Notes under the pieces: generated by a model
What the model saw: the letters and a program-made list of their open reading frames with translations, nothing else
Databases searched by the model: none
What the model was told of the DNA's origin: nothing
Assembly (NCBI RefSeq): GCF_058153355.1
Contig: NZ_JBLWLY010000002.1
Source: a plasmid
Direction: 5' to 3' (one strand)
Length of the DNA stretch: 64,000 bases
Shown here: piece by piece, positions 4,687-56,348 of the stretch
Numbering within the stretch: position 1 is the stretch's first letter
Layout: each line of letters opens with the position of its first letter
Translations under genes and position numbers: made by a program

Positions 4687-6511
4687 AGTCGAGTCAGCCG
4701 GAGAGAATTTCACTCCCCGGCTGCTCACGGAACCGTACGTGACACTCTCGCGTCATACGGCTCTTGATCACTCATTTGATGCACGTAGTAAATACCAGTG
4801 AACAAATAGCTTCGGATACTCCTTCCTTACCAGCGTCAGCTTTCGCTGAGCCTTCCGGTTCGAAAGTCTGTATTTAGACTGCATCCACTTGAGCAGACGT
4901 GACTGCATTGCACTCCACAGTCGATAGTTGAAATTTCTGGACCAGAACTTTCCGTAGTACTCGATCCAGCCTCTCACTATCGCATTGTAGCGCCTCGCAA
5001 AATCCAGCAAACTCTCAGCTGTTGAGCGATGTATACGCCACTTCTTGATTGTTTCTGTTATTTTGCGCATTGCTGCATTTGACGCACCCGGCATGCATTT
5101 TCGGTACAGTTCGCCTTTGAAATTCTTCAGCGTACGCACTTTGAAGTCATATCCGAGAAAGGTGAAACTCGTTGCGACGTTTCTCCTTTTAAACGTGTCA
5201 ATGTAGGCGATATTCGTTTTCCCTGCATTCAGGACCAGCCCGACTTCCGAGAAGCGCTCCGATAACCTGTTCTTCAGCCTTGTTGCATCACTCATTCGTG
5301 AACAATGTACTACAATATCGTCAGCGTACCTCTCAAACGGTACCCCCCGATATTCTCTTTCCATCCACAAATCAAATGCATAGTGAAGGAACAAGTTAGC
5401 AAGTAGTGGACTAATGACCCCGCCCTGCGGAGTGCCTCGTGTTCGGGTTATTAATTCTCCATTTTCACAACTCTGCATTGGCGCTTCCATCCAGCGTCGA
5501 CAGTACAGGATGACCCATTTAGGCATCCCGTGGTGTTCCAGAGCTTTGAGCACCAGATCATGTCTCACATGGTCGAAAAACGCACTGATGTCCACTTCCA
5601 GTATCCAGCTATAACGCCAGCACCGGATGGCACATTGTTTCAGAGCGTCATGAGCTGATTTGCCTGGTCGGTAACCATATGAATCAGCATGGAAAATCGG
5701 GTCAAGCTTTTCTTCCATGAAAAGTTTTATCGCTCCCTGAGCAATTCGATCGGATACTGTTGGGATCCCCAGAATGCGTTCCTTGCCATTCGACTTCGGG
5801 ATCCGTTTTTCCAGCACTGGTGGCGGAAACCATGTTCCCGAACATAGCCGGTTCCAGATCTTGTATAGATTGCCATCACGTTGCTGGTCGAACATTTTCA
5901 AAGTCTGCCCGTCGCATCCGGGGGCTCCCTTGTTGCGACGCACATCCAGATATGATGCCCAGACCAGTGCTTTTGGTATTTCAAATGATTTTCGTTGCAT
6001 CAGTTACGTCATCCCCTTTTGGGTTGTGTCTTCTGCAATGAATGTGATCCCCATCCCTTCGCTCCAGACCCATTACAGATCTTTCATCACTACTACGAAT
6101 GGGTCCGCCCCTGTTTCCCGATACGTGCCGGAAACAGGTTCTCACGTTCCCTGAGATGGTCTGGCCCGGGATCCTGCTGCCTTCACACCGGATGCCGCGC
6201 AGTCAGTAAGCAGGTGTCTTCTGCGCTTATCAGGGGACGGCTGTACGGCCCCATTTTGACATCATCTAAGATTTCGATGCTTCATCGGACAGTTTACTTT
6301 CGTTCAGCTTCCCGAACCCCACGTGACAGTAGATCTCTGCCTTTTCCCGAGTCGCTCACCACCTCATTCCTTAGAATGAAGCAGCACCGGGTCGTTTGGT
6401 CAGTGCTCCTGTAAACCCTGACCGGAGGGCCCACCTCCACCCACCTCAGAGCATGGATAACTTATGCTGCAATTTTCACATTGTTGCCATAAGTACTCCT
6501 TCGTGACACAC
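4687..6511 (-). mobile_element. bacterial group II intron, copy 1
   Basis: 5' GTGTG and 3' ...AC termini; domain V-like hairpin gagccgtatgacgcg...cacgtacggttc after the IEP; interrupts tnpC between codons for GRKNWL and FAGSDSG. Confidence 0.8.
4768..6000 (-). CDS. group II intron-encoded reverse transcriptase/maturase (no endonuclease domain)
   Basis: 410 aa with RT motifs including YADD (RYADDIVV) and a maturase-like C-terminus. Confidence 0.85.
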   Translation of the reverse strand: MQRKSFEIPKALVWASYLDVRRNKGAPGCDGQTLKMFDQQRDGNLYKIWNRLCSGTWFPPPVLEKRIPKSNGKERILGIPTVSDRIAQGAIKLFMEEKLDPIFHADSYGYRPGKSAHDALKQCAIRCWRYSWILEVDISAFFDHVRHDLVLKALEHHGMPKWVILYCRRWMEAPMQSCENGELITRTRGTPQGGVISPLLANLFLHYAFDLWMEREYRGVPFERYADDIVVHCSRMSDATRLKNRLSERFSEVGLVLNAGKTNIAYIDTFKRRNVATSFTFLGYDFKVRTLKNFKGELYRKCMPGASNAAMRKITETIKKWRIHRSTAESLLDFARRYNAIVRGWIEYYGKFWSRNFNYRLWSAMQSRLLKWMQSKYRLSNRKAQRKLTLVRKEYPKLFVHWYLLRASNE

Positions 6512-7943
6512 AGAGCCAGTTTTTCCGGCCTACGGCCACTCCCCGTAAGGCGTTCTCTGCGATGTTGTTGTCGATTTCCACCCAGCCATTACTGCAGTAC
6601 ACGTTCAGTGCATCCCACTGTTTCAGCAGGTATGCGAACGCTTTTGCCGTGTCCGAGTGACGCGACAGTGTTTTCATCTGTTGCTGTATCCAGTCATACA
6701 GTGACTGCATCAGTGGCGCGGCTCTGGCTTTTCTTGCCGCCAGACGCTGTTCTGCTGAACAGCCCCGGACCTCTGCCTCGATGGCATACAGTTCACCGAT
6801 ACGCTGCAGGGCTTCCGTGGTGATGTCGGTGGGCACTCTTGCATGCACATCGTGGATTTTTCTCCGGGCATGAGCCATACATGCGGCTTCCGTTATTCTG
6901 CCGGATTCGTACAACGCCCGGTAACCACCGTAAGCATCGGCCTGAAGCACTCCGCTGTAACCGGCCAGATGATTCTGTGGATGGATACCTTTCCGGTCCG
7001 GGCTGTACGCGAACCAGACCGCCGGAGGCATTTCCGAACCGGCATTCCTGTCATCCCGGACATACGTCCAGATATATCCTGTTTTCGCCTTCTTCCTGCT
7101 CGGTGCCAGCACTTTTACTGGTGTGTCATCAGTGTGAACCTTGCGGGTGTTCATCACATAACGGTACAGGGCATCATTCAGCGGAGTCATTAACTGGCAG
7201 CACGCGTCAACCCAGTTGGAGAGTAACGTACGGCTCAGTTCGACCCCCTGACGGGCAAAGATTTCACTCTGACGATACAGTGGCAGGTGTTCGCAGTATT
7301 TTCCCGTTAACACGCGGGCAAGTAACCCCGGGCCCGCGATACCACGCTCTATCGGACGGGACGGTGCCGGAGCTTCAACGATGCAGTCACATTTTGTACA
7401 GGCTTTTTTTACCCGTTCTGTGCGGATCACTTTCAGAGCGCTGCTCACCAGTTCCAGTTGTTCTGCGCTGACTTCCCCCAGATAATCCAGCTCACCGCCA
7501 CACTCCGGGCAACAGCTTTCTTCTGGCTCCAGGCGATTTATTTCGCGGGGCAGATGCTCCGGTAACGGGCGACGATGACGAGACTGTCGTAACTGGCGGG
7601 GAACCCGGAACTCCACCTTGCAGGAGTTTGCACTGACAGTTGTCTGAGTAGATAGAGACGGAGTAAGAGCCGCCACCGGTTCTTTCTGCTCATCCGGCGT
7701 TATCTCCACAGGTAATAATTCAACGCCAGCGTCAGAAGGGGTTGTTACCGGAAGACGCCGTGATATACGCCCTTCGTTTTGCCAGAGTCTGAGCCATTTG
7801 AAAATAACATTATCATTAACGCCATTTTCTCGTGCAATCTGGGCCACACAAGCTCCGGGTTGTGATGCCAGTTCAACCATACGAAGTTTGAATTCATTCG
7901 AATGCTTTTTACGAGGTTCTTTTCGCCAGTCCTGTAATTCCAT
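6512..7943 (-). pseudogene. IS66 orfA-tnpC in-frame fusion, interrupted at 3' end by the intron
   Basis: N-terminus matches orfA of copy at 25452, then jumps at [19 protein letters not shown] into the middle of tnpC; tnpB absent; downstream tnpC exon at 4506..4686. Confidence 0.7.
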
Positions 7944-10863: not shown

Positions 10864-10954
10864 AAAAGCAAAAACCCCGATAATCTTCTTTAACTTTGGC
10901 GAGTGAGAAAGATTACCGGGGCCATCTAAAAACCGTATAGCCAACAATCAAGCT
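10864..10954 (-). ncRNA. copA: CopA-like antisense RNA (approximate bounds)
   Basis: position between repA2 and tap; minus-strand hairpin ccccggtaatc...gattatcgggg followed by a T-run at the 3' end. Confidence 0.45.
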
Positions 10955-10973
10955 ATGCGGGGAGTATAGTTAT

Positions 10974-17288: not shown

Positions 17289-17546
17289 ATGCATACCACC
17301 CGACTGAAGAAGGTTGGTGGCTCTGTTATGCTGACCGTCCCACCGGCACTGCTGAATGCGCTGTCTCTGGGTACAGATAATGAAGTTGGCATAGTCATTG
17401 ATAATGGCCGGCTGATTGTTGAGCCGCACAGACGCCCGCAATATTCACTGGCTGAGCTACTGGCACAGTGTGATCCGAATGCTGAAATATCAGCTAAAGA
17501 ACGAGAATGGCTGGATGCACCGGCGACTGGTCAGGAGGAAATCTGA
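17289..17546 (+). CDS. pemI: PemI antitoxin, copy 2
   Basis: 85 aa; three substitutions relative to copy 1. Confidence 0.85.
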   Translation: MHTTRLKKVGGSVMLTVPPALLNALSLGTDNEVGIVIDNGRLIVEPHRRPQYSLAELLAQCDPNAEISAKEREWLDAPATGQEEI

Positions 17547-17547
17547 C

Positions 17548-17880
17548 ATGGAAAGAGGGGAAATCTGGCTTGTCTCGCTTGATCCTACCGCAGGTCATGA
17601 GCAGCAGGGAACGCGGCCGGTGCTGATTGTCACACCGGCGGCCTTTAATCGCGTGACCCGCCTGCCTGTTGTTGTGCCCGTAACCAGCGGAGGCAATTTT
17701 GCCCGCACTGCCGGCTTTGCGGTGTCGTTGGATGGTGTTGGCATACGTACCACAGGTGTTGTGCGTTGCGATCAACCCCGGACAATTGATATGAAAGCCC
17801 GGGGCGGAAAACGACTCGAACGGGTTCCAGAGACTATCATGAACGAAGTTCTTGGCCGTCTGTCCACTATTCTAACTTGA
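17548..17880 (+). CDS. pemK: PemK toxin, copy 2 (ATG start)
   Basis: MERGEIWLVSLDPTAG...; ORF 17416..17880 in track. Confidence 0.85.
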   Translation: MERGEIWLVSLDPTAGHEQQGTRPVLIVTPAAFNRVTRLPVVVPVTSGGNFARTAGFAVSLDGVGIRTTGVVRCDQPRTIDMKARGGKRLERVPETIMNEVLGRLSTILT

Positions 17881-19349: not shown

Positions 19350-20238
19350 TTACGCATGCACCATTGCTTTCACCAATGCAAACTGAGGTTCATCCACCTT
19401 GTTCACTTTCAGATTCGGGAAATATTGCTTTATGTGAGGGTAAATAAGCTCGGCTCCCCCGCCTGTGAGGTAGATTCGGTTCATTCCTGAGAATGTTGAA
19501 ATTTCCTGCCTGATGCTTTCTGCCAGAGATTTCACCTCACTGTCTATTACATGAGTAATATTTTTTATTTCAGCCACATCATTTATTAATGTCTGGAGAT
19601 ATTCATTATCATGCCTGTTTTTTATTAACTCATCAGCAATAAAATAATTGCAGGGTGTGGAGGCTTTTGTTAGTGCATTCATGACGGTATGAGTTATGCG
19701 GGATGTCCCGATTTCTGAATTGCCACGGATTTCAGAAATGCCTTCAAATGCACCGAGAATTAAACCACAATCCAGAGTGGTTCCTCCAAGATCGATAATC
19801 AGGCTGCGTTCAAGTTTGTTTACTTTATCTTTTTTTAGTGATTCAAATGCAGCCGGCAAAGATTCAGGCATTACATTAACTTTTTTAATTTTAAATGTTT
19901 CCCCTTTATTCAGAGATATCTCACGGAGAACATTTGCCTTTTTTCTTTCTATTCTTTCTTCATTTGGTTGATTGTCATTATCAAAGAATTCGGTTACAGG
20001 TAATGTTACTGTCAGTTCTACATCCTGTGGCTGAAGGCCGGATGTCAGCAGTGCTGCCCAAATCATAGGTGTATTTTTTTCCATCCACGACGTAATTGTA
20101 AACTTTGCCGGCATTAAACAGTCCCGGGTTCCAGCCTTCTTTAAAGCTGTTTCCTGACAGACTGGTTCTTACCTCGCCATCTTCAAGCCAGGCCAGTTTT
20201 ACGTTAGTTGAACCATCATCGCATGATACTTTTAGCAT
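19350..20238 (-). pseudogene. parM: ParM/StbA actin-like partition ATPase, frameshifted
   Basis: N-terminal part (ORF 19981..20283, CDDGSTNVKLAW) and C-terminal part (ORF 19350..20114, IIDLGGTTLD) are in different frames. Confidence 0.7.
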
Positions 20239-20284
20239 TCTTTTTGCCTCGTTTTGAGTTTGTGTTTGTCTCAAATTGAGCATC

Positions 20285-20400
20285 CTTTATGTCGATGCAT
20301 CTTTTTGAGTTTTTGTTATTTCTTATTGTGACTCAATTTGAGTTCTTGTTGGTTTCTCATTTTGCGTCACAAACTGAGACGGAAACTACTTAACCAGGCC
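20285..20400. promoter_or_regulatory. parC: parC-like centromere/promoter repeats (approximate)
   Basis: repeated ttgag/tcaa motifs directly upstream of parM. Confidence 0.4.
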
Positions 20401-20589
20401 GTGCCGGCACGTTAACCGGGCTGCATCCGATGCAAGTGTGTCGCTGTCGCCGGCCTCCTCACCCGGTCACGTTTCGTCGTTCCTCCTCCACGCGCTGCGG
20501 CTTCGGGGCCGCACCTGCATTCGTATGCGGTCGCCCGGTTACAGGTGCGGCACGGCCTGATGGAGGCCGCATGTGAGAGGAGAATTCCC

Positions 20590-21516
20590 ATGCCAAACTG
20601 GTGCTCGAATCGTATGTATTTTTCTGGTGAACCAGCACAGATTGCTGCGATTAAACGACTGGCCAGCGGTGCAGTCACACCGCTTTATCGCCGCGCCACA
20701 AATGAAGGTATTCAGCTGTTTCTGGCCGGAAGTGCCGGACTTCTGCAGACCACTGAAGATGTGCAGTTTGAACCGTGCCCCGGACTGACGGCTGCCGGAC
20801 GTGGTGTTGTATCGCCGGAGAATATCGCGTTCACCCGCTGGCTGACACACCTGCAGAACGGTGTGCTACTGGATGAACAAAACTGCCTGATGCTGCATGA
20901 ACTCTGGCTGCAGAGTGGTACTGGCCAGCGTCGCTGGGAAGGATTACCGGATGAGGTCAGGGAAACCATCACCGTGCATTTCACCGCCAAAAGAGGTGAC
21001 TGGTGTGGCTTCTGGAGTAACGAGGATGTATCGGTGTGGTGGAACCGTCTGTGTGACAATGTACTGCCGGAAAAAAACATGCCGTTTGACCTGTTGACGG
21101 TTCTGCCCACCCGCCTGGATGTTGAAGTGAATGGCTTTAACGGTGGTGTTCTGAACGGTGTTCCTTCTGCGTATCACTGGTATACGGAACAGTATGGCGT
21201 GAAGTGGCCTGTGGGGTATGAGGTGAATATCAGCCGTCAGGGAGAAAACTTCATTCAGGTGGATTTCGACACGCCGTGGTGTCAGCCGGAAAGCAACGTT
21301 GTTGCAGAATTAAGCCGCCGTTTCGGCTGCACGCTGGAGCACTGGTACGCCGAACAGGGCTGCAATTTCTGTGGCTGGCAGCGATATGAGCGTGGAGAGC
21401 TTGTTGATGTGCTGTGGGGGGAACTGGAATGGTCTTCCCCGACAGATGATGATGAGCTGCCGGAAGTCACCGCGCCGGAGTGGATAGTCGACAAGGTGGC
21501 GCATTACGGGGGATGA
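20590..21516 (+). CDS. hypothetical protein, likely conserved plasmid backbone gene
   Basis: ORF 20545..21516; probable start MPNWCSNRMYF at 20590; family not identified. Confidence 0.55.
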   Translation: MPNWCSNRMYFSGEPAQIAAIKRLASGAVTPLYRRATNEGIQLFLAGSAGLLQTTEDVQFEPCPGLTAAGRGVVSPENIAFTRWLTHLQNGVLLDEQNCLMLHELWLQSGTGQRRWEGLPDEVRETITVHFTAKRGDWCGFWSNEDVSVWWNRLCDNVLPEKNMPFDLLTVLPTRLDVEVNGFNGGVLNGVPSAYHWYTEQYGVKWPVGYEVNISRQGENFIQVDFDTPWCQPESNVVAELSRRFGCTLEHWYAEQGCNFCGWQRYERGELVDVLWGELEWSSPTDDDELPEVTAPEWIVDKVAHYGG

Positions 21517-21899
21517 AGTATGACGGAGACGGGCGGGCAACCGCCCGTTTCTTTTCCGACAAAGGATGTCGCCGTGCTCCTCTTTTTACTGCGCCGGCTG
21601 ACGCGGCGCGGCATAAACGCTGCCTGTGGTCAGTGTCCCGCGTCCGGCGGGCACGGGACGGGCGCTTTACCGCTCCGGGCTGGCGTCGGTGACAGTGTAC
21701 GCCAGCCCGTCGCCCTGTTCTGATGAACGCCCTTCAAGCCGCTTTCTCGGCATAACCTTGCCGTCAGAAAGACGACGGCTGCGGTATTCCACGGTCGGTC
21801 TGACCCGTTACCGGACGCGGTGAACAGCCCACAGGCAGCGGGGAACGGGCACCACAGGGGTGCCCTCCCGGTGCCCTCTGTAAGAGAAGGAGCGTTGTT

Positions 21900-22583
21900 A
21901 TGTCCCGTTTTGTCCTTGGTAACTGCATCGATGTTATGACGCGTATCCCTGATAACGCCATTGATTTCATATTAACTGACCCGCCATATCTCGTCGGTTT
22001 TCGTGACCGTTCCGGGCGCACCATCGCCGGAGATAAAACCGATGAATGGCTGCAACCGGCCTGTAATGAAATGTACCGCGTGCTGAAAAAAGATGCGCTG
22101 ATGGTGAGCTTCTATGGCTGGAACCGCGTCGATCGCTTTATGGCCGCCTGGAAAAATGCGGGATTCAGCGTGGTTGGCCACCTGGTATTTACCAAAACCT
22201 ACACATCGAAGGTCGCATATGTGGGCTATCGCCACGAATGCGCTTACATCCTGGCAAAAGGGCGTCCGGCGCTGCCTCAGAAGCCATTGCCCGACGTGCT
22301 GGGCTGGAAATATTCAGGCAACCGCCATCACCCGACGGAAAAGCCCGTTACCAGCCTGCAACCGCTCATTGAGAGCTTCACACACCCGAACGCGATTGTG
22401 CTGGACCCGTTTGCAGGCAGCGGCTCAACCTGCGTCGCCGCCCTCCAGTCCGGACGCCGGTATATCGGTATCGAGTTGCTTGAGCAGTATCACCGTGCCG
22501 GGCTGCAACGCCTTGCCGCCGTGCAGCGGGCCATGCAGCAGGGGGCCGCGAATGATAACTGGTTTGAACCGGAGGCGGCGTAA
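21900..22583 (+). CDS. orphan DNA methyltransferase (N6-adenine/N4-cytosine type)
   Basis: 227 aa with DPPY motif (LTDPPYLVGF) and SAM-binding-like FAGSGST; no adjacent restriction gene seen. Confidence 0.8.
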   Translation: MSRFVLGNCIDVMTRIPDNAIDFILTDPPYLVGFRDRSGRTIAGDKTDEWLQPACNEMYRVLKKDALMVSFYGWNRVDRFMAAWKNAGFSVVGHLVFTKTYTSKVAYVGYRHECAYILAKGRPALPQKPLPDVLGWKYSGNRHHPTEKPVTSLQPLIESFTHPNAIVLDPFAGSGSTCVAALQSGRRYIGIELLEQYHRAGLQRLAAVQRAMQQGAANDNWFEPEAA

Positions 22584-22805
22584 ATGAACTATGCCGGACA
22601 CGAAAAACTTCGCGCCGAAGTGGCGGAGGTGGCCAACACCATGTGTGACCTTCGGGCCAGGCTGAACGATATGGAGCATCGCTGTCGCTTTGATTCCGAT
22701 GTGCTTGTTGAACGCCTGACACGCCAGACGCTGTATCGCGCCAATCGCCTGTTCATGGAGGCATATACCGAAATTCTGGAACTGGATTCCTGCTTCAAAG
22801 ATTGA
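22584..22805 (+). CDS. hypothetical protein
   Basis: 73-aa ORF immediately after the methyltransferase gene. Confidence 0.4.
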   Translation: MNYAGHEKLRAEVAEVANTMCDLRARLNDMEHRCRFDSDVLVERLTRQTLYRANRLFMEAYTEILELDSCFKD

Positions 22806-23251
22806 GGGGAGAGAGTATGTACGGAACATGCGAAACGCTCTGCCGGGAGCTGGCAGCAAAGTATCCGGGAGACACGCCGTTGATGCTGGTTGTCTGGTCC
22901 CCGGAAGAGATTCAGGCCCTCGCTGACGGAATGGATATTTCCCTGTCCGATCATGAAATCAGGACCGTCCTGGCGCGCCTGGAGGACATCCCGGAAGACC
23001 AGCGAATTGAGTCCGGTATTTCTTCCTCCGCGGCGATGGAGATTATCAGCAACGTGAGCGAAAACCGCCAGGTGACCGTCCCTGCTGAACTGCTGGCGTC
23101 CCTGATTCAGACCGCTGAACAGGCATTGTGGAAGCGTGAATGGGCCGCCCGTGATTACGGCCTCGCCGTCCCGGAATGCGTTACCCGCCGTCAGGCGGTG
23201 GTTAATCAGGCCCGCATCCTGCTGAAAAACAACACGCACGAAAACGACTGA
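22802..23251 (+). CDS. hypothetical protein
   Basis: 149-aa ORF; start overlaps the upstream stop. Confidence 0.5.
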   Translation: MRGESMYGTCETLCRELAAKYPGDTPLMLVVWSPEEIQALADGMDISLSDHEIRTVLARLEDIPEDQRIESGISSSAAMEIISNVSENRQVTVPAELLASLIQTAEQALWKREWAARDYGLAVPECVTRRQAVVNQARILLKNNTHEND

Positions 23252-23296
23252 TGTTATCGCCGCCTGCGGGCGGCGATACAGGGAGAACGATTAATC

Positions 23297-24073
23297 ATGA
23301 ACGAAAACACAACGCTGAATGCACTGATTTGTCGTCACGCCCGAGACCTGCTGCTGGCGCAGGGCTGGCCGGAAGAGACGGATGTTGACCAGCGGAACCC
23401 GAAGTATCCGGGCTGGATCAGCATTTATGTTCTGCTGGATGCGCCCCGGCTGGCGACGTTACTTATCAACCGTCACGGCGGCGCACTGCCGCCACTCCTG
23501 GCCTCCGCCATTCACAAACTGACCGGAACCGGGGCGGAACTTGTACTGTCCGGCAGTCAGTGGCAGTCGCTGCCGGTACTTCCGGCAGACGGAACGCAGG
23601 TGTCTTTCCCGTATGCCGGTGAGTGGCTGGCAGAGGATGAAATCAGGGCAGTTCTTGATGCGGTACGCGATGCAGTACGCTGTGTCAGTTACCAGGTGGC
23701 AGAAGATACGCGGCGTATCCGGGCGGCGCTGACCACAACCGGTCAGACGTTACTGACCCGCCAGACGCGCCGCTTTCGCCTGGTCGTGAAGGAAAGCGAT
23801 CACCCCTGCTGGCTCGATGAGGACGACGAAAACCTGCCCGTGGTGCTCGATGCCATCCTGAACCGGGGCGCACGTTTTTCGGCGGTGGAAATGTATCTGG
23901 TCAGCGATTGTATTGAGCATATCCTGTCCAGTGGGCTGGCCTGCGATGTGCTGCGTATACCGGATGAACCGCCCCGCCGGTGGTTTGACCGTGGTGTTCT
24001 GCGGGAGGTGGTCCGGGAAGCCCGGGCCGAAATTCGCAGCATGGCGGATGCCCTGGCAAAAATCCGGAAATGA
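23297..24073 (+). CDS. hypothetical protein
   Basis: 258-aa ORF, same strand as the preceding block. Confidence 0.5.
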
Positions 24074-24375
24074 TGACGATGGCGGGGAAAATCTATGGTC
24101 ACCCCCGTTTTTGCAACACTGATTTTTGATTAATGGTGGGCTTGCTTAAATCTATCCGGCGTCTCTGTGGGCAAGGGATGCCCGCGCCTCGATGAGTTCC
24201 GCACCTGATAATCCTAAAAATCCCCTCGGCTTCAGTGAGCCATTTTCCCCTGTTAGGTTTTTAATCAGGTCGATTTGCCGTTCATGTCATCAATAATCAA
24301 TCTTCGCAAAACCAGACGGTAACTTGTATCTTATTGTTTGCAATAAGCTAATTGAGTTTTGTCAGCATCTATATA

Positions 24376-25266
24376 TCAGGCCTGATATTCTTTTTGCTGA
24401 GTAGTGATTGCCCAGGCAATTCGGGCCAGTTTATTTGCCAGAGCGCAGGCAACCACATTCGAATGCTTCTTGTTGAGTTGCTCCCGAACCCACTCAGCAA
24501 GTTTTCCATGCTGGCGTTCAAGCTGCATCATGAATGAGCGGGCACACTGAACCAGTAACCGGCGTAAATTTTTATCACCTCGCTTACTGATACCCAACAG
24601 AGTCGATTTTCCTCCAGTGCTATACTGCCGGGGAACGAGCCCTGTGGAAGCCGCAAAATCTCTGCTGCATGAAAACAGTTTCCCGTCACCAAGTTGCGAC
24701 GATAGTAAGCTGGCAGTAATCGGCCCAACACCAGGAATTGTCATAATGCGCTGAGCGGTATCATCAGCGTTGATTGACTGACTTAATTCTGATTCCAGCT
24801 CTGCTATTTGCTCAACAAGGTAAAGGTAGTGGGTATGCAACCTCACCAAAAGGCGGCTCAGATATTCGGGGATTTCGTGTTCAGCCAATACGAGAGACAA
24901 CCGTTTTATTACGGCATCCCCTGTCGGCAGGCTGATTCCAAATTCCAGCAGGAAACCGTGGATCTGGTTGGTTGTTTTCACCTTATCTCTGATGAGCGAT
25001 TCTCTGACCCGGTGTAATGCCCTCATTGCCTGCTGGGTCTCAGTTCTTGGTTGGACAAAACGCATTGATGGTCGTGAAGCCGCTTCACATATGGCTTCTG
25101 CATCAACAAAATCATTCTTATTACTTTTGACAAACGGGCGAACGAACTGTGGAGAAATCAGCTTAGTTTCATGTCCAAAATCAGAGATACGGCGAGCCAA
25201 AAAGTGTGCACCCGCACAGGCTTCCATTACAACAACTGAGGGCGGACATGTTGCCAGAAACTGCAT
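24376..25266 (-). CDS. IS110-family transposase; 5' end overlapped by IS66 terminal repeat
   Basis: 296-aa ORF; upstream in frame to about 25365 encodes YLIGIDLGKHSFHIH but no start codon is left. Confidence 0.7.
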   Translation of the reverse strand: MQFLATCPPSVVVMEACAGAHFLARRISDFGHETKLISPQFVRPFVKSNKNDFVDAEAICEAASRPSMRFVQPRTETQQAMRALHRVRESLIRDKVKTTNQIHGFLLEFGISLPTGDAVIKRLSLVLAEHEIPEYLSRLLVRLHTHYLYLVEQIAELESELSQSINADDTAQRIMTIPGVGPITASLLSSQLGDGKLFSCSRDFAASTGLVPRQYSTGGKSTLLGISKRGDKNLRRLLVQCARSFMMQLERQHGKLAEWVREQLNKKHSNVVACALANKLARIAWAITTQQKEYQA

Positions 25267-28086: not shown

Positions 28087-29910
28087 GTGTGTCACGAAGG
28101 AGTACTTATGGCAACAATGTGAAAATTGCAGCATAAGTTATCCATGCTCTGAGGTGGGTGGAGGTGGGCCCTCCGGTCAGGGTTTACAGGAGCACTGACC
28201 AAACGACCCGGTGCTGCTTCATTCTAAGGAATGAGGTGGTGAGCGACTCGGGAAAAGGCAGAGATCTACTGTCACGTGGGGTTCGGGAAGCTGAACGAAA
28301 GTAAACTGTCCGATGAAGCATCGAAATCTTAGATGATGTCAAAATGGGGCCGTACAGCCGTCCCCTGATAAGCGCAGAAGACACCTGCTTACTGACTGCG
28401 CGGCATCCGGTGTGAAGGCAGCAGGATCCCGGGCCAGACCATCTCAGGGAACGTGAGAACCTGTTTCCGGCACGTATCGGGAAACAGGGGCGGACCCATT
28501 CGTAGTAGTGATGAAAGATCTGTAATGGGTCTGGAGCGAAGGGATGGGGATCACATTCATTGCAGAAGACACAACCCAAAAGGGGATGACGTAACTGATG
28601 CAACGAAAATCATTTGAAATACCAAAAGCACTGGTCTGGGCATCATATCTGGATGTGCGTCGCAACAAGGGAGCCCCCGGATGCGACGGGCAGACTTTGA
28701 AAATGTTCGACCAGCAACGTGATGGCAATCTATACAAGATCTGGAACCGGCTATGTTCGGGAACATGGTTTCCGCCACCAGTGCTGGAAAAACGGATCCC
28801 GAAGTCGAATGGCAAGGAACGCATTCTGGGGATCCCAACAGTATCCGATCGAATTGCTCAGGGAGCGATAAAACTTTTCATGGAAGAAAAGCTTGACCCG
28901 ATTTTCCATGCTGATTCATATGGTTACCGACCAGGCAAATCAGCTCATGACGCTCTGAAACAATGTGCCATCCGGTGCTGGCGTTATAGCTGGATACTGG
29001 AAGTGGACATCAGTGCGTTTTTCGACCATGTGAGACATGATCTGGTGCTCAAAGCTCTGGAACACCACGGGATGCCTAAATGGGTCATCCTGTACTGTCG
29101 ACGCTGGATGGAAGCGCCAATGCAGAGTTGTGAAAATGGAGAATTAATAACCCGAACACGAGGCACTCCGCAGGGCGGGGTCATTAGTCCACTACTTGCT
29201 AACTTGTTCCTTCACTATGCATTTGATTTGTGGATGGAAAGAGAATATCGGGGGGTACCGTTTGAGAGGTACGCTGACGATATTGTAGTACATTGTTCAC
29301 GAATGAGTGATGCAACAAGGCTGAAGAACAGGTTATCGGAGCGCTTCTCGGAAGTCGGGCTGGTCCTGAATGCAGGGAAAACGAATATCGCCTACATTGA
29401 CACGTTTAAAAGGAGAAACGTCGCAACGAGTTTCACCTTTCTCGGATATGACTTCAAAGTGCGTACGCTGAAGAATTTCAAAGGCGAACTGTACCGAAAA
29501 TGCATGCCGGGTGCGTCAAATGCAGCAATGCGCAAAATAACAGAAACAATCAAGAAGTGGCGTATACATCGCTCAACAGCTGAGAGTTTGCTGGATTTTG
29601 CGAGGCGCTACAATGCGATAGTGAGAGGCTGGATCGAGTACTACGGAAAGTTCTGGTCCAGAAATTTCAACTATCGACTGTGGAGTGCAATGCAGTCACG
29701 TCTGCTCAAGTGGATGCAGTCTAAATACAGACTTTCGAACCGGAAGGCTCAGCGAAAGCTGACGCTGGTAAGGAAGGAGTATCCGAAGCTATTTGTTCAC
29801 TGGTATTTACTACGTGCATCAAATGAGTGATCAAGAGCCGTATGACGCGAGAGTGTCACGTACGGTTCCGTGAGCAGCCGGGGAGTGAAATTCTCTCCGG
29901 CTGACTCGAC
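28087..29910 (+). mobile_element. bacterial group II intron, copy 2
   Basis: same sequence as copy 1 in opposite orientation; begins gtgtg after ...aaaaactggctct and ends ...gactcgac before tcgcgggttctgac. Confidence 0.8.
28598..29830 (+). CDS. group II intron-encoded reverse transcriptase/maturase
   Basis: 410 aa, identical to ORF 4768..6000. Confidence 0.85.
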   Translation: MQRKSFEIPKALVWASYLDVRRNKGAPGCDGQTLKMFDQQRDGNLYKIWNRLCSGTWFPPPVLEKRIPKSNGKERILGIPTVSDRIAQGAIKLFMEEKLDPIFHADSYGYRPGKSAHDALKQCAIRCWRYSWILEVDISAFFDHVRHDLVLKALEHHGMPKWVILYCRRWMEAPMQSCENGELITRTRGTPQGGVISPLLANLFLHYAFDLWMEREYRGVPFERYADDIVVHCSRMSDATRLKNRLSERFSEVGLVLNAGKTNIAYIDTFKRRNVATSFTFLGYDFKVRTLKNFKGELYRKCMPGASNAAMRKITETIKKWRIHRSTAESLLDFARRYNAIVRGWIEYYGKFWSRNFNYRLWSAMQSRLLKWMQSKYRLSNRKAQRKLTLVRKEYPKLFVHWYLLRASNE

Positions 29911-45694: not shown

Positions 45695-45732
45695 TTCCGG
45701 ATTATCTGCCAGTACCGCCTTTCGTGCATTCG

Positions 45733-45987
45733 GACGGTGGCGGTTACATGATGCCGGATGGCGACCGTTTTTATCTGGTCAACAGTGAAAACTGGTTTGA
45801 CCGCACGGTCAGCGCCGATGCCGCAGGCATCATTCTTACCTCCCTTGTGATTAACCGCCTGTTGTGGCTGTACCACGACAGCGGGGATGCGGGACTGACA
45901 CACCTGTACCGGATGCGCGATGCGCAGTTGTGGAGCCACATCGAATTTCACCCCGAATGTAACGCGATTTACGCGGCACTGGACTGA
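45733..45987 (+). pseudogene. KlcA/ArdB-family antirestriction gene, 3' fragment
   Basis: C-terminal SDGGGYMMPDG...SADAAGI...AIYAALD resembles KlcA; no matching N-terminus upstream. Confidence 0.55.
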
Positions 45988-50183: not shown

Positions 50184-50237
50184 TGAACAACCACACCGCC
50201 CCGCCGGAGACGGGGCGGCAGCAAGGGAGATACTGTG

Positions 50238-51290
50238 ATGAAAACTGAACTGACCCTGAATGTATTACAGACCATGAGTGCACAGGAATATGAAGATATC
50301 CGGGCTGCCGGAAGTGATGAACGCCGTGAGCTGACACACGCCGTGATGCGGGAACTGGATGCGCCGGACAACTGGACGATGAATGGCGAGTACGGCAGCG
50401 AGTTCGGCGGCTTTTTCCCCGTCCAGGTCCGTTTCACGCCTGCCCACGAACGTTTTCACCTGGCGTTATGTTCACCGGGCGATGTCTCTCAGGTCTGGGT
50501 GCTGGTTCTGGTGAATGCCGGTGGTGAGCCGTTTGCGGTGGTTCAGGTGCAGCGGCGGTTTGCACCGGAAGCTGTCAGCCATTCACTGGCACTGGTTCCC
50601 CTCAGCGCAGAGCAACAGGCCGCATGGCGGGCGCTGGCAGAGACGGAAAAACGCCGCCATCAGGGAAACTTGCTGGCGGAATATCCGTATGCGGGGGCGT
50701 TTTTCCGCTGTCTGAACGGAAGCCGCAGGATATCGCTGTCTGACCTGCGATTTTTCATGCCGTCCCTGACCGCAGAAGAACTGCACGGCAACCGTCTTCA
50801 GTGGCTGTATGCCATCGATGTGCTGATTGAAACACAGGGCGAGGTCTGCCTCCTTCCCCTTCCCGGTGATGCAGCAGAGCGGTTGTTTCCGTCGGTGCGG
50901 TTCCGTGTCAGGGAGCGCAGTCGCCACAAATCCGCACTGGTCATGCAGAAGTACAGCCGTCAGCAGGCACGGGAGGCAGAGCAGAAAGCCCGTGCGTACC
51001 AGGCACTGGTTGCTCAGGCTGAAATCGAACTGGCGTTCCATTCACCGGAAACAGTCGGAAGCTGGCATGCCCGCTGGAGTGACCGGGTGGCAGAGCATGA
51101 CCTGGAAACCCTGTTCTGGCAGTGGGGTGAGCGTTTTCCGTCACTGGCCGGGATGGAACGCTGGCAGTGGCAGGATATGCCATTCTGGCAGGTTATCGCG
51201 GAAGCCAGTCTGGCAGCAAGAGAGGTCGGTCACGCTGTCCGTGAGATGGAGCGGTGGATGGTGCCGAACAAACTCCGGGAGGCAGCGTAA
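50238..51290 (+). CDS. psiB: PsiB-PsiA in-frame fusion protein
   Basis: N-terminal about 119 aa PsiB-like ([13 protein letters not shown]...), remainder PsiA-like to the end. Confidence 0.7.
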
Positions 51291-51479
51291 TGCGGCAACA
51301 ATCACACAGATTACCCGTAAACAGCCTGAATGAGCGGGTTATTTTCAGGAAAAGTGAATGTGGTCAGCGTGCTGGTATATGGGCTATGATGTGCCCGGCG
51401 CTTGAGGCTTTCTGCCTCATGACGTGAAGGTGGTTTGTTACCGTGTTGTGTGGCAGAAGGACAAAAGCCCCGTAGTTAA

Positions 51480-51545
51480 TTTTCATTAACCCACGAGGCC
51501 CTGCATGCTTAGACAACATCAGGATAGCCTCTTACCGCGCTTTGC
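51480..51545 (-). ncRNA. sok: Sok antisense RNA (approximate)
   Basis: expected antisense partner upstream of hok and overlapping the mok start; bounds not determined. Confidence 0.35.
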
Positions 51546-51717
51546 GCAAGGAGAAGAAGGCCATGAAACTACCACGCAGCTCCCTTGTCTGGTGTGTGTT
51601 GATCGTGTGTCTCACACTGTTGATATTCACTTATCTGACACGAAAATCGCTGTGCGAGATTCGTTACAGAGACGGATACAGGGAGGTGGCGGCTTTCATG
51701 GCTTACGAATCCGGTAA
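51505..51717 (+). CDS. mok: Mok (modulator of hok translation)
   Basis: 70-aa ORF overlapping hok in another frame. Confidence 0.6.
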
Positions 51718-54724: not shown

Positions 54725-54815
54725 CTCCACAAAAAGGCTCAACAGGTTGGTGGTTCTCACCACCAAAAGCACCACACCCCACGCAAAAACAAGTTTTTTC
54801 TGATTTATCTTTAAT
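54725..54815. other. oriT with F-type nic sequence
   Basis: minus-strand sequence tttgcgtggggtgtggtgcttttggtggtgagaaccacc; predicted nick between 54773 and 54774. Confidence 0.75.
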
Positions 54816-55095
54816 ATCATTGAGTTGTATTTGTGGATTTATATTGTTTAAATCTGCTTTATTTAAAGCAGCGTCGTTAACGCAGCTACAGCAACGCGCC
54901 GACACCGCTTTGTAGGGGTGGTACTGACTATTTTTATAAAAAACATTATTTTATATTAGGGGGGCTGCTAGCGGCGCGGTGTGTTTTTTTATAGGATACC
55001 GTCAGGGGCGCTGCTAGCGGTGCGTCCCTGTTTGCACTATGAATTCTAGTGTTTCGAAATTAACTTTGTTTTATGTTTAAAAAAGGTAATATCTA

Positions 55096-55479
55096 ATGGC
55101 TAAGGTGAATCTGTATATCAGCAATGATGCTTATGAAAAAATAAACGCGATTATTGAAAAACGTCGACAGGAGGGGGCGAGAGAAAAAGATGTCAGTTTT
55201 TCAGCAACGGCTTCAATGCTTCTTGAACTGGGTCTTCGTGTATATGAGGCTCAGATGGAGCGCAAAGAGTCTGCATTTAATCAGGCCGAGTTTAATAAAC
55301 TACTTCTTGAATGCGTTGTAAAAACACAGTCATCAGTAGCGAAAATTTTGGGTATTGAGTCTCTCAGTCCTCATGTCTCAGGAAATCCAAAGTTTGAATA
55401 TGCCAATATGGTTGAAGATATCAGAGAGAAGGTGTCGGTTGAGATGGAAAGGTTCTTTCCAAAAAATGATGATGAATAA
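55096..55479 (+). CDS. traM: TraM
   Basis: 127 aa MAKVNLYISNDAYEKINAIIEKRRQEG... Confidence 0.9.
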   Translation: MAKVNLYISNDAYEKINAIIEKRRQEGAREKDVSFSATASMLLELGLRVYEAQMERKESAFNQAEFNKLLLECVVKTQSSVAKILGIESLSPHVSGNPKFEYANMVEDIREKVSVEMERFFPKNDDE

Positions 55480-55670: not shown

Positions 55671-56348
55671 ATGTGTGCGATGGATACTAGAGAAAGAGCA
55701 CTCATACGTCAATCAGGCCTGCCGGAAATTATTTTATCCGCAAAATATCCAGTCTGTGTCCGCACAGAGTCTACCGTTCCCGGTGACCGGATTATCGCCG
55801 TGAACAGTCTGGATGGTGCCCTGACCAATAATGAGCAGACCGCCTCCGGCGGTGTGGTGGTTGCCACCGTCAACAAAAAGCCCTTTACGTTCATTCTGGA
55901 AACAGAACGTGGTCTGAACCTTTCCATTCAGGCCGTTCCCCGTGAAGGCGCGGGGCGTACCATTCAGCTGGTCAGTGACCTGCGCGGAACCGGAGAAGAA
56001 GCCGGTGCGTGGGAAACGTCCACGCCTTACGAATCCCTGCTTGTGACCATCAGCCAGGCCGTCCGTGGCGGAAAATTACCCGCAGGCTGGTATCAGGTCC
56101 CGGTGACAAAGGAAACCCTGCAGGCCCCGGCGGGGCTGTCTTCAGTGGCAGATGCCGTATGGACGGGGAATCATCTGAAGATGGTCCGCTTTGCCGTGGA
56201 AAATAAAACGCTGTCTGCCCTGAATATCCGGGAAAGTGACTTCTGGCAGCCGGGAACCCGTGCCGTGATGTTCAGCCAGCCTGCCAGCCAGTTACTGGCA
56301 GGTGCGCGCATGGATGTGTATGTCACCCGTGACGGGGAGGGCAACTGA
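55671..56348 (+). pseudogene. traJ'-'traK fusion left by deletion of traJ through traE
   Basis: ATG at 55671 with RBS gaggagg; first about 36 codons TraJ-like, then TraK-like sequence from [13 protein letters not shown] to the end. Confidence 0.65.

Follow-up and report, generated by a model that had tools for sequence, protein, structure and literature searches.

An orphan adenine methyltransferase and its neighbors form a probable M.EcoGIX module in the leading region of an F-like plasmid

Introduction

What does a plasmid gain from a DNA methyltransferase without a restriction partner, and from the genes without known function that surround it? This question is raised by positions 20590–24073 of the window, the 64,000-nucleotide stretch of plasmid DNA analyzed here (contig NZ_JBLWLY010000002.1 of NCBI RefSeq assembly GCF_058153355.1). 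An initial annotation had described a same-strand run of five uncharacterized genes, one of them a DPPY-motif methyltransferase, and had proposed the unknown open reading frames (ORFs) as candidates for anti-defense functions in the early-transferred region of a conjugative plasmid. We conclude that the block is probably the “M.EcoGIX module” of an F-like leading region, located distal to the origin of transfer (oriT).

The module as such is known: its key enzyme and its mode of expression have been published, and the anti-defense guess for its neighbors is in print. Few modules are more frequent on the resistance and virulence plasmids of enterobacteria, and as a discovery it is modest. Its value lies in pointing to four very widespread leading-region genes without known function, three of which were ranked 6th, 7th, and 27th by Samuel et al (2024). 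A second covarying hairpin class, a spurious ORF, fusions of DUF1380 and YffB proteins, and a contrast in evolutionary rate between the methyltransferase and its neighbors may be new, and are leads useful to groups studying plasmid establishment.

Results and Discussion

Identity of the methyltransferase and its module

The methyltransferase is encoded at 21900–22583 on the plus strand (227 amino acids) and is, judged by its sequence, a close orthologue of M.EcoGIX, the characterized entry-protection enzyme of the IncI1 plasmid pESBL. Both proteins are identical at 212 of 227 positions (93%) over their full length. The window protein matches NCBIfam NF010253 (E 1e-149, 496 bits, cut-off 244) and, with residues 21–200, Pfam N6_N4_Mtase (E 9e-40). 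Motif IV, DPPY (residues 27–30; nucleotides 21978–21989), lies N-terminal to the S-adenosylmethionine-binding motif I (FxGxG), here DPFAGSGST (residues 169–177), which is the order of β-class N6-adenine methyltransferases. Its solved relatives by sequence are likewise β-class enzymes, including CcrM, RsrI, and a chain named DpnA. The ratio of nonsynonymous to synonymous substitutions (dN/dS) of 0.03–0.17 indicates purifying selection. The proposed lack of a restriction partner was borne out, as Pfam and PADLOC searches revealed no nuclease among the neighbors, and the orphan arrangement recurs, with no endonuclease candidate, in 31 related Enterobacterales loci. The label “uncharacterized”, in contrast, does not suit this gene, whose orthologue has already been characterized.

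M.EcoGIX generates N6-methyladenine at the degenerate site SAY on one strand only, acts in vitro on single-stranded DNA (ssDNA) and not on duplex DNA, is silent during vegetative growth, and leaves donor plasmid and chromosome unmodified; the cloned enzyme is active without its neighbor genes (PMC7736820). When recipients carry EcoRI or EcoGIII, its deletion reduces transfer of pESBL up to ~1000-fold, an effect that is gone if the donor pre-methylates the plasmid (PMC4288162), while inversion of oriT abolishes protection (PMC4288162, PMC7736820). According to Wen et al (Nucleic Acids Research 2025; PMC12672017), the M.EcoGIX operon is strongly induced in fresh pESBL transconjugants, and the F homologue is induced too. 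Homologues are YfeA of F, YfbB of R64, and M.BceJIII of the Burkholderia plasmid pBCA072.

Not only the enzyme but the whole block has its counterpart in pESBL. The methyltransferase gene is preceded by a DUF1281/Api92-like gene (20590–21516; 308 amino acids, 309 codons with the stop) and followed by an ORF of 73 amino acids (22584–22805), a DUF1380 gene (22817–23251; 144 amino acids), and an ORF of 258 amino acids (23297–24073), all on the plus strand and all intact, as the initial annotation had it. For the DUF1380 gene, the ATG at 22817 with its good Shine–Dalgarno sequence is preferred, and the listed TTG at 22802 is less likely to be the start. The IncI1 plasmid pESBL-EA11 carries the identical five-gene set in the same order, named Hp8, M.EcoGIX, Hp9, Hp10, and Hp11/YchA by Yamaichi et al, with M.EcoGIX at record position 54782–55465 (PMC4288162). 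Protein identity to the five counterparts is 78–95%, with 288 of 308 residues identical for Hp8, 57 of 73 for Hp9, 133 of 144 for Hp10, and 245 of 257 for Hp11/YchA. The methyltransferases thus share not only motif order and orphan status but also flanking genes and their position and orientation in the leading region. Unlike its relative in pESBL, the window copy belongs to an F-like plasmid with a RepFIIA CopA RNA, an interrupted leading region, and a partly deleted tra operon.

In F, the block is found at 94.5% DNA identity, with yfdA for the DUF1281 gene (aliases YubB and YccB), yfeA for the methyltransferase, and yffB for the 258-residue protein. The last assignment is based on primers of a 2026 preprint, which encode DEDDEN and DCIEHILS of this protein. 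The F copy of the DUF1281 gene is frameshifted: tblastn splits yfdA (5856–6778 in the F record) into two segments in different frames, and the function of DUF1281 therefore cannot be tested by work on F.

Megablast of 20400–24200 against PLSDB retrieved the block from at least 5000 plasmid records at 90–97% identity. Among the matches listed, 4291 records align with 80% or more of the query at a single site, again at 90–97% identity; most are plasmids of Escherichia, Salmonella, Klebsiella, and Shigella with a conjugative typing. In the best-match IncF plasmid, the block occupies the far end of the leading region and is followed by klcA, ssb, a ParB-like gene, psiB, hok, a DUF932 gene, an SLT gene, oriT, and traM. 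We further surveyed gene order in 40 loci, one genome per species, 31 of them from Enterobacterales. In 28–29 of these 31 loci the methyltransferase gene is followed by the 73-residue ORF and DUF1380, with the 258-residue gene and klcA usually next. The 73-residue ORF directly follows the methyltransferase in 28 of the 31 (34–99% identity).

The strand that enters the recipient can be read from oriT. A pattern match places the F-type nic sequence GGGGTGTGGTGC, which we take to be the established F oriT nic consensus, at 54769–54780 on the minus strand. Consequently, the minus strand is the transferred (T) strand and the template for the block genes on the plus strand. The early-transferred context that the initial annotation had assumed is confirmed: the block belongs to a leading region of the IncF/IncI1 type, at its end distal to oriT.

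Structured elements in the intergenic gaps

The two intergenic gaps of the block are occupied, exactly, by two long inverted repeats that the initial annotation had overlooked. It had also overlooked a terminator-like hairpin behind the first gene and a break of the leading region at 24093/24094, just downstream of the block.

The first element, hp1, is a 165-nucleotide stem-loop on the minus strand immediately 5′ of DUF1281 (20395–20559; inverted repeat 20395–20421/20533–20559) with a predicted DNA fold of −50.3 kcal/mol (z-score −3.9). It is 99.5% identical to its counterparts in pESBL, F, and H1, compared with a synonymous divergence of ~0.13 in the adjacent DUF1281 gene. BLAST finds hp1 homologues directly 5′ of the methyltransferase in at least 8 other Enterobacterales loci, 11 in the alignment. 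Such elements precede the methyltransferase in loci without DUF1281, among them loci assigned to Yersinia pestis, Salmonella arizonae, Klebsiella, Lelliottia, Pantoea, and Buttiauxella. Across 13 sequences, the 46 base pairs of hp1 are maintained at 97.8%, and 15 of them show compensatory changes, a result matched by none of 500 shuffles. All 13 sequences share TTGCAT-N15-TA(A/C)(C/A)GT on the 3′ arm, where the −10-like hexamer falls within an internal loop. We regard hp1 as a candidate ssDNA promoter or other T-strand cis element.

The second element, hp2, is a branched 271-nucleotide stem-loop on the minus strand 5′ of the methyltransferase (21576–21846), adjoined by a small extra hairpin (21847–21865). 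On the minus strand, the entire 380-nucleotide gap between DUF1281 and the methyltransferase folds at −117.7 kcal/mol (z-score −8.1). Covariation was analyzed in 14 hp2 regions from Escherichia, Citrobacter, Raoultella, Enterobacter, Erwinia, Edwardsiella, and Entomohabitans: the 85-pair structure is paired at 98.2%, 12 pairs display compensatory changes, none of 500 shuffles matches this, and slid controls reach at most 4. Independent folds favor the T-strand over the sense strand in 14 of 14 hp2-type regions, with consensus energies of −118.9 versus −103.6 kcal/mol. The count of G·T wobbles points the same way but is biased by how the structure was derived, and we rely on the independent folds instead. 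Additional hp2-type copies reside ~50 nucleotides 5′ of DUF1281 in two Citrobacter loci and 5′ of an unrelated gene of 155 codons in another (extra copies were located in loci L008, L009, L021, and L024). Both types behave as portable 5′ cassettes.

These elements lie where duplex promoters are missing. A σ70 promoter scan of 20250–24400 on both strands yielded none, with 2.0 expected. Three classes of ssDNA promoter have been distinguished, namely class 1 (Frpo/ssi), class 2 (ssp2, 5′ of klcA and ardA), and class 3 (ssp3, 5′ of M.EcoGIX); the start site of the last was mapped by rapid amplification of 5′ cDNA ends (5′ RACE), as reported in PMC12672017. Like these promoters, hp1 and hp2 are large T-strand stem-loops 5′ of leading-region genes without duplex promoter. 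Neither is BLAST-similar to the Frpo and ssp2 regions of F, pESBL, and H1, and searches of F-like plasmids, pESBL, and other loci with Frpo and ssp2 matched only hp1- and hp2-type elements. No Rfam family covers hp1 or hp2.

By its position and the terminator preceding it, we consider hp2 likely to be the published class 3 element. This terminator-like hairpin (21529–21555, plus strand) begins 13 nucleotides past the DUF1281 stop and comprises an 8-bp GC-rich stem (21529–21548) with a GCAA loop, followed by TTCTTTT. It was read off the sequence and is present in the intergenic fold, while a simple terminator scan did not list it. The hairpin suggests two transcription units, one from hp1 into DUF1281 and one from hp2 into the methyltransferase, the 73-residue ORF, DUF1380, and the 258-residue gene. 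If hp2 is class 3, hp1 is undescribed: in pESBL, F, and the window alike, the 1.5 kb 5′ of the methyltransferase hold a pair of T-strand stem-loops that are unrelated to each other and covary strongly, yet one class 3 hairpin has been published, although pESBL has both.

Proposed mode of action

Taken together, we propose the following sequence of events. During conjugation, the minus strand would enter the recipient single-stranded, and hp2, probably also hp1, would fold on it and attract the RNA polymerase of the host ahead of second-strand synthesis. Production of the methyltransferase would thus be confined to the new host, where the enzyme would modify SAY adenines on ssDNA while PolI copies the strand. 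Being hemimethylated, the first duplex would resist many restriction enzymes. Conversion of the hairpins into duplex DNA would then silence the genes. The 73-residue, DUF1380, and 258-residue genes would be co-transcribed with the methyltransferase, and DUF1281 would be transcribed separately.

A comparable strategy is used by DpnA of the DpnII system of Streptococcus pneumoniae, an ssDNA methylase that protects incoming plasmid DNA in transformation. DpnA is likewise a β-class adenine methylase (a chain of PDB 5HEK is a sequence relative of the window enzyme, E 2e-11) and likewise modifies the entering single strand before restriction. It differs in being GATC-specific, in belonging to a restriction–modification cassette, and in being encoded by the host rather than carried by the incoming element.

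Several points weigh against this proposal. SAY methylation, protection from restriction, and dependence on orientation are carried over from M.EcoGIX to the window enzyme through their 93% orthology and are thus presumed for the latter. The four other proteins show no likeness in sequence or fold to ArdA, ArdB/KlcA, ArdC, or Acr families. Transposon insertion sequencing of pESBL found none of these genes to be required for maintenance or for transfer to K-12 (PMC4288162). β-Proteobacterial methyltransferase homologues are accompanied by none of the neighbor genes. Relaxed scans for −35/−10 elements gave one conserved candidate in hp1, where hexamers are plausible, and no convincing pair in hp2; as this kind of scan also failed to detect the Frpo known to precede ssb, it is not relied on. 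RNA sequencing of pESBL reported only six induced operons (PMC12672017), which speaks for a weak or inactive hp1 in that plasmid. The assignment of “class 3” to one of the two hairpins is uncertain, and two related preprints give no coordinates. Finally, the module in the present plasmid is intact but stranded and may no longer be used.

Role of the co-encoded proteins

For the methyltransferase, the anti-defense role put forward by the initial annotation is well supported, since M.EcoGIX has been shown to protect; for the other four ORFs it was, and is, a guess from context, which fold and sequence searches neither back nor refute. The same guess had already been published: in the supplementary table of Samuel et al (2024), the methyltransferase, DUF1380, and DUF1281 constitute families 8, 7, and 27 of those enriched in leading regions and coded on the T-strand. 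Family 6, with the source names AreA, YffA, and YchA, is probably the 258-residue protein. For families 6, 7, and 27, the DIAMOND and Foldseek searches of that study gave no match to known anti-defense proteins.

None of the five genes behaves as a pseudogene, the fate that would have spoken against a role: comparison with the orthologues of pESBL, F, and less closely related plasmids gives a dN/dS of 0.03–0.35, with 0.12–0.35 for the four neighbors (0.15–0.26 for DUF1281 and 0.12–0.28 for the 73-residue ORF). The DUF1281 product matches PF06924 (E 1e-48, 165.3 bits, cut-off 27.3) and PF18406 (DUF1281_C; E 4e-15, 56.1 bits, cut-off 22.8). Over residues 3–274 it matches the structural-genomics entry Api92 (PDB 2IJR, E 2e-50), which names the fold and explains nothing. 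The DUF1380 protein matches PF07128 over its full length (176.9 bits, cut-off 26); its structural model is all-helical and of moderate confidence (predicted TM-score 0.49), with generic helical hairpins as the only structural matches. The 73- and 258-residue proteins contain no Pfam domain. In Pfam, NCBIfam, and PHROG searches, the sole family match of the former was PHROG 4830, itself of unknown function. The latter belongs to a small family (178 representatives in 1.84 billion) and is modeled with a pLDDT of 89.7 as two α/β lobes with long helices, for which no informative structural neighbor was found. PDB sequence searches with the 258-residue and DUF1380 proteins gave chance matches only, and PADLOC and NCBIfam searches returned nothing for the four unknown proteins.

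The start codon of the 73-residue ORF abuts the methyltransferase stop (TAAATG), which suggests coupled expression. In several plasmids, DUF1380 and the 258-residue protein occur as single fused ORFs of 375–442 amino acids, for instance at 5838–7163 of locus L012 and 5838–7160 of locus L020, and in the proteins P0003, P0007, P0038, and P0048. Such natural fusions suggest that the two proteins act together. For catalysis by the methyltransferase the neighbors are not needed, as the β-proteobacterial homologues lack them and the cloned enzyme works alone. A perfect 10-bp GC-rich hairpin without T-run, TATCGCCGCC-TGCG-GGCGGCGATA, lies between the DUF1380 and 258-residue genes (23256–23279).

From their context, the four neighbors are most likely further establishment or anti-defense factors. 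The strongest rival gives them other tasks in establishment: they might reprogram the host as HerB/YfjB does, process the incoming strand, or regulate the methyltransferase. We assign this reading a substantial, though minority, share of the probability. It gains from the leading-region ParB-like protein YfjB, which proved to reprogram host transcription rather than to counter defenses (PMC13370423), and from the lack of similarity to anti-restriction and anti-CRISPR proteins both here and in Samuel et al. The contiguity of the 73-residue ORF with the methyltransferase gene and the DUF1380 fusions would suit it as well. On the other hand, the neighbors diverge much faster than the methyltransferase, as is common for proteins in conflict with host defenses: the methyltransferase remains 82–96% identical across Enterobacterales loci, and in distant loci the neighbors share 28–61% compared with 82–89% for the methyltransferase. 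Moreover, leading regions are statistically enriched for anti-defense genes (PMC11541004), and the cloned methyltransferase is active without its neighbors.

A joint and more tentative proposal follows for hp1 and the fused proteins. We can imagine that hp1 (as the most likely of the two hairpins) represents a fourth class, new to the literature, of portable promoters or cis elements acting on single strands, driving DUF1281 here and the methyltransferase in plasmids of Yersinia, Salmonella arizonae, Klebsiella, Lelliottia, and Pantoea, and that DUF1380 and the 258-residue protein form a two-part establishment or anti-defense effector co-expressed with the methyltransferase; that all of this holds is doubtful.

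Integrity of the plasmid

The premise of a conjugative plasmid, on which the initial annotation had built, fails for this copy. Homology to L001, an IncF plasmid, breaks off at 24093 and is regained at 45731. A 21.6-kb insertion (24094–45730), which carries a K88/F4-like fimbrial operon and a group II intron besides IS110-like and IS66 elements, takes the place of 564 bp (23688–24251 in L001). Lost with this segment are ssp2, the class 2 ssDNA promoter, and codons 1–57 of klcA/ardB, of which a remnant persists at 45733–45984. Over the block, identity to the best matches in PLSDB and among RefSeq E. coli reaches 97%, and none of these matches crosses the insertion junction. The block is now located ~31 kb from oriT instead of ~13 kb.

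Beyond the insertion, psiB and psiA are fused into one ORF of 351 amino acids (50235–51290) by a deletion of ~98 nucleotides that joins PsiB residues 1–119 in frame with PsiA. The best PLSDB matches to this region align in two pieces over 399 nucleotides for a query of 301, and the deletion appears specific to this plasmid. At 55671–56345, a further deletion cuts traJ after ~37 residues, removes traY, traA, traL, and traE, and deprives traK of its first 51 residues. Kept are traM, the traJ 5′ untranslated region with FinP, and the oriT nic sequence, and the SLT gene, oriT, and traM follow each other as in L001 and F. Due to the tra losses, the plasmid cannot make a pilus of its own or conjugate alone, and the module could act only if mobilized in trans.

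Is the block, then, an unused remnant, the ancestral baggage of a non-conjugating virulence-type plasmid that has not yet decayed? We consider this reading possible but less likely than not. It draws on the tra deletion, on the loss of ssp2 and the 5′ end of klcA, on a psiB–psiA fusion not seen in the best plasmid matches, and on nearby decay: the adjoining parM gene appears frameshifted, and DUF1281 is a pseudogene already in F. Against it, the block has kept each of its five ORFs, hp1, hp2, and the terminator-like hairpin undamaged across 3.7 kb, and the retained nic sequence, traM, and FinP leave mobilization in trans possible. Purifying selection acts family-wide, though it cannot be dated to this lineage. 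The window illustrates how a leading region decays once conjugation stops, with klcA, psiB–psiA, and tra damaged and the methyltransferase module whole.

Alternative readings of the structured elements

As set out above, the M.EcoGIX module would be expressed from folded T-strand promoters. The stem-loops could instead be priming sites (ssi or primosome sites), synthesis barriers like ssp2, or leader structures of mRNA that govern its translation or stability. We judge this unlikely, with several arguments to be weighed. In favor of such roles, neither arm of hp2 contains convincing σ70 hexamers, and ssp2 in F not only drives transcription but also blocks replication (bioRxiv 10.64898/2026.01.09.698686). 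DNA synthesis is primed by Frpo transcripts, folding of the sense strand is only 1–7 kcal/mol worse, and only six induced operons were reported in pESBL. A promoter function is favored by the fixed distance of ~50 nucleotides at which both element types precede the start codons of unrelated genes, by the class 3 ssDNA promoter with mapped start published 5′ of M.EcoGIX, whose position hp2 occupies, and by G·T wobbles and folding energies that favor the T-strand; moreover, the block genes have no other promoter. The consistent preference for the T-strand also led us to downgrade an RNA leader as the alternative to a DNA structure.

A very improbable reading is that the gap of 380 bp encodes a protein rather than a structured non-coding element. 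RefSeq (PGAP) annotates a “hypothetical protein” of 101–103 amino acids across hp2 in H1, pESBL, and F (WP_011254640, WP_001310011, and WP_010892536); the ORF corresponds to 21513–21823 in the window, 21114–21425 in L001, 4395–4706 in L003, and 6785–7090 in L044, the F record. In the window, this frame is broken by a 1-nucleotide deletion, and the remaining ORF ends at 21692. Among the 14 hp2 regions, indels are mostly of 1, 2, or 4 nucleotides, and the longest open frame switches frame. Changes are compensatory for pairing, so that variation keeps base pairs and not codons. We therefore rejected the ORF as a real gene, and its annotation is probably an artefact repeated in many plasmid records.

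Equally improbable is a restriction–modification or housekeeping epigenetic role of the methyltransferase. PADLOC labels its best model “Type II methyltransferase” and the closest solved relatives include CcrM and methylases of restriction–modification systems, but no endonuclease adjoins it here or in the 31 related loci, the orthologue leaves donor DNA unmodified and is silent vegetatively, and the block lacks a duplex promoter.

Additional features

Within the insertion, the IS110-like element lies at 24376–25266 (minus strand), the group II intron at 28160–29910 (plus strand), and the fimbrial operon at ~32.5–42.9 kb. A second intron copy is found at 4688–6438 (minus strand), and both copies score identically for the Rfam families D1–D4 and domain V–VI. 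The window further contains CopA (10866–10956; RepFIIA), pemI/pemK (17289–17880), and sok (51396–51565). The ParM/StbA-like gene next to the block (19350–20283, minus strand) consists of overlapping ORFs of 254 and 100 amino acids and looks frameshifted. AT-rich, iteron-like repeats (caaattgag, caatttgag, and aaactgaga) fill 20270–20380, between this gene and hp1.

Enterobacterial leading-region blocks with methyltransferases of 88–97% identity also turned up in assemblies labeled as Gram-positive, namely L014 and L028 (Streptomyces morookaense), and in the metagenome-assembled genomes L004, L007, L031, and L042, titled Collinsella, Oscillibacter, and Oscillospiraceae. These most likely reflect contamination or mis-binning rather than the true host range.

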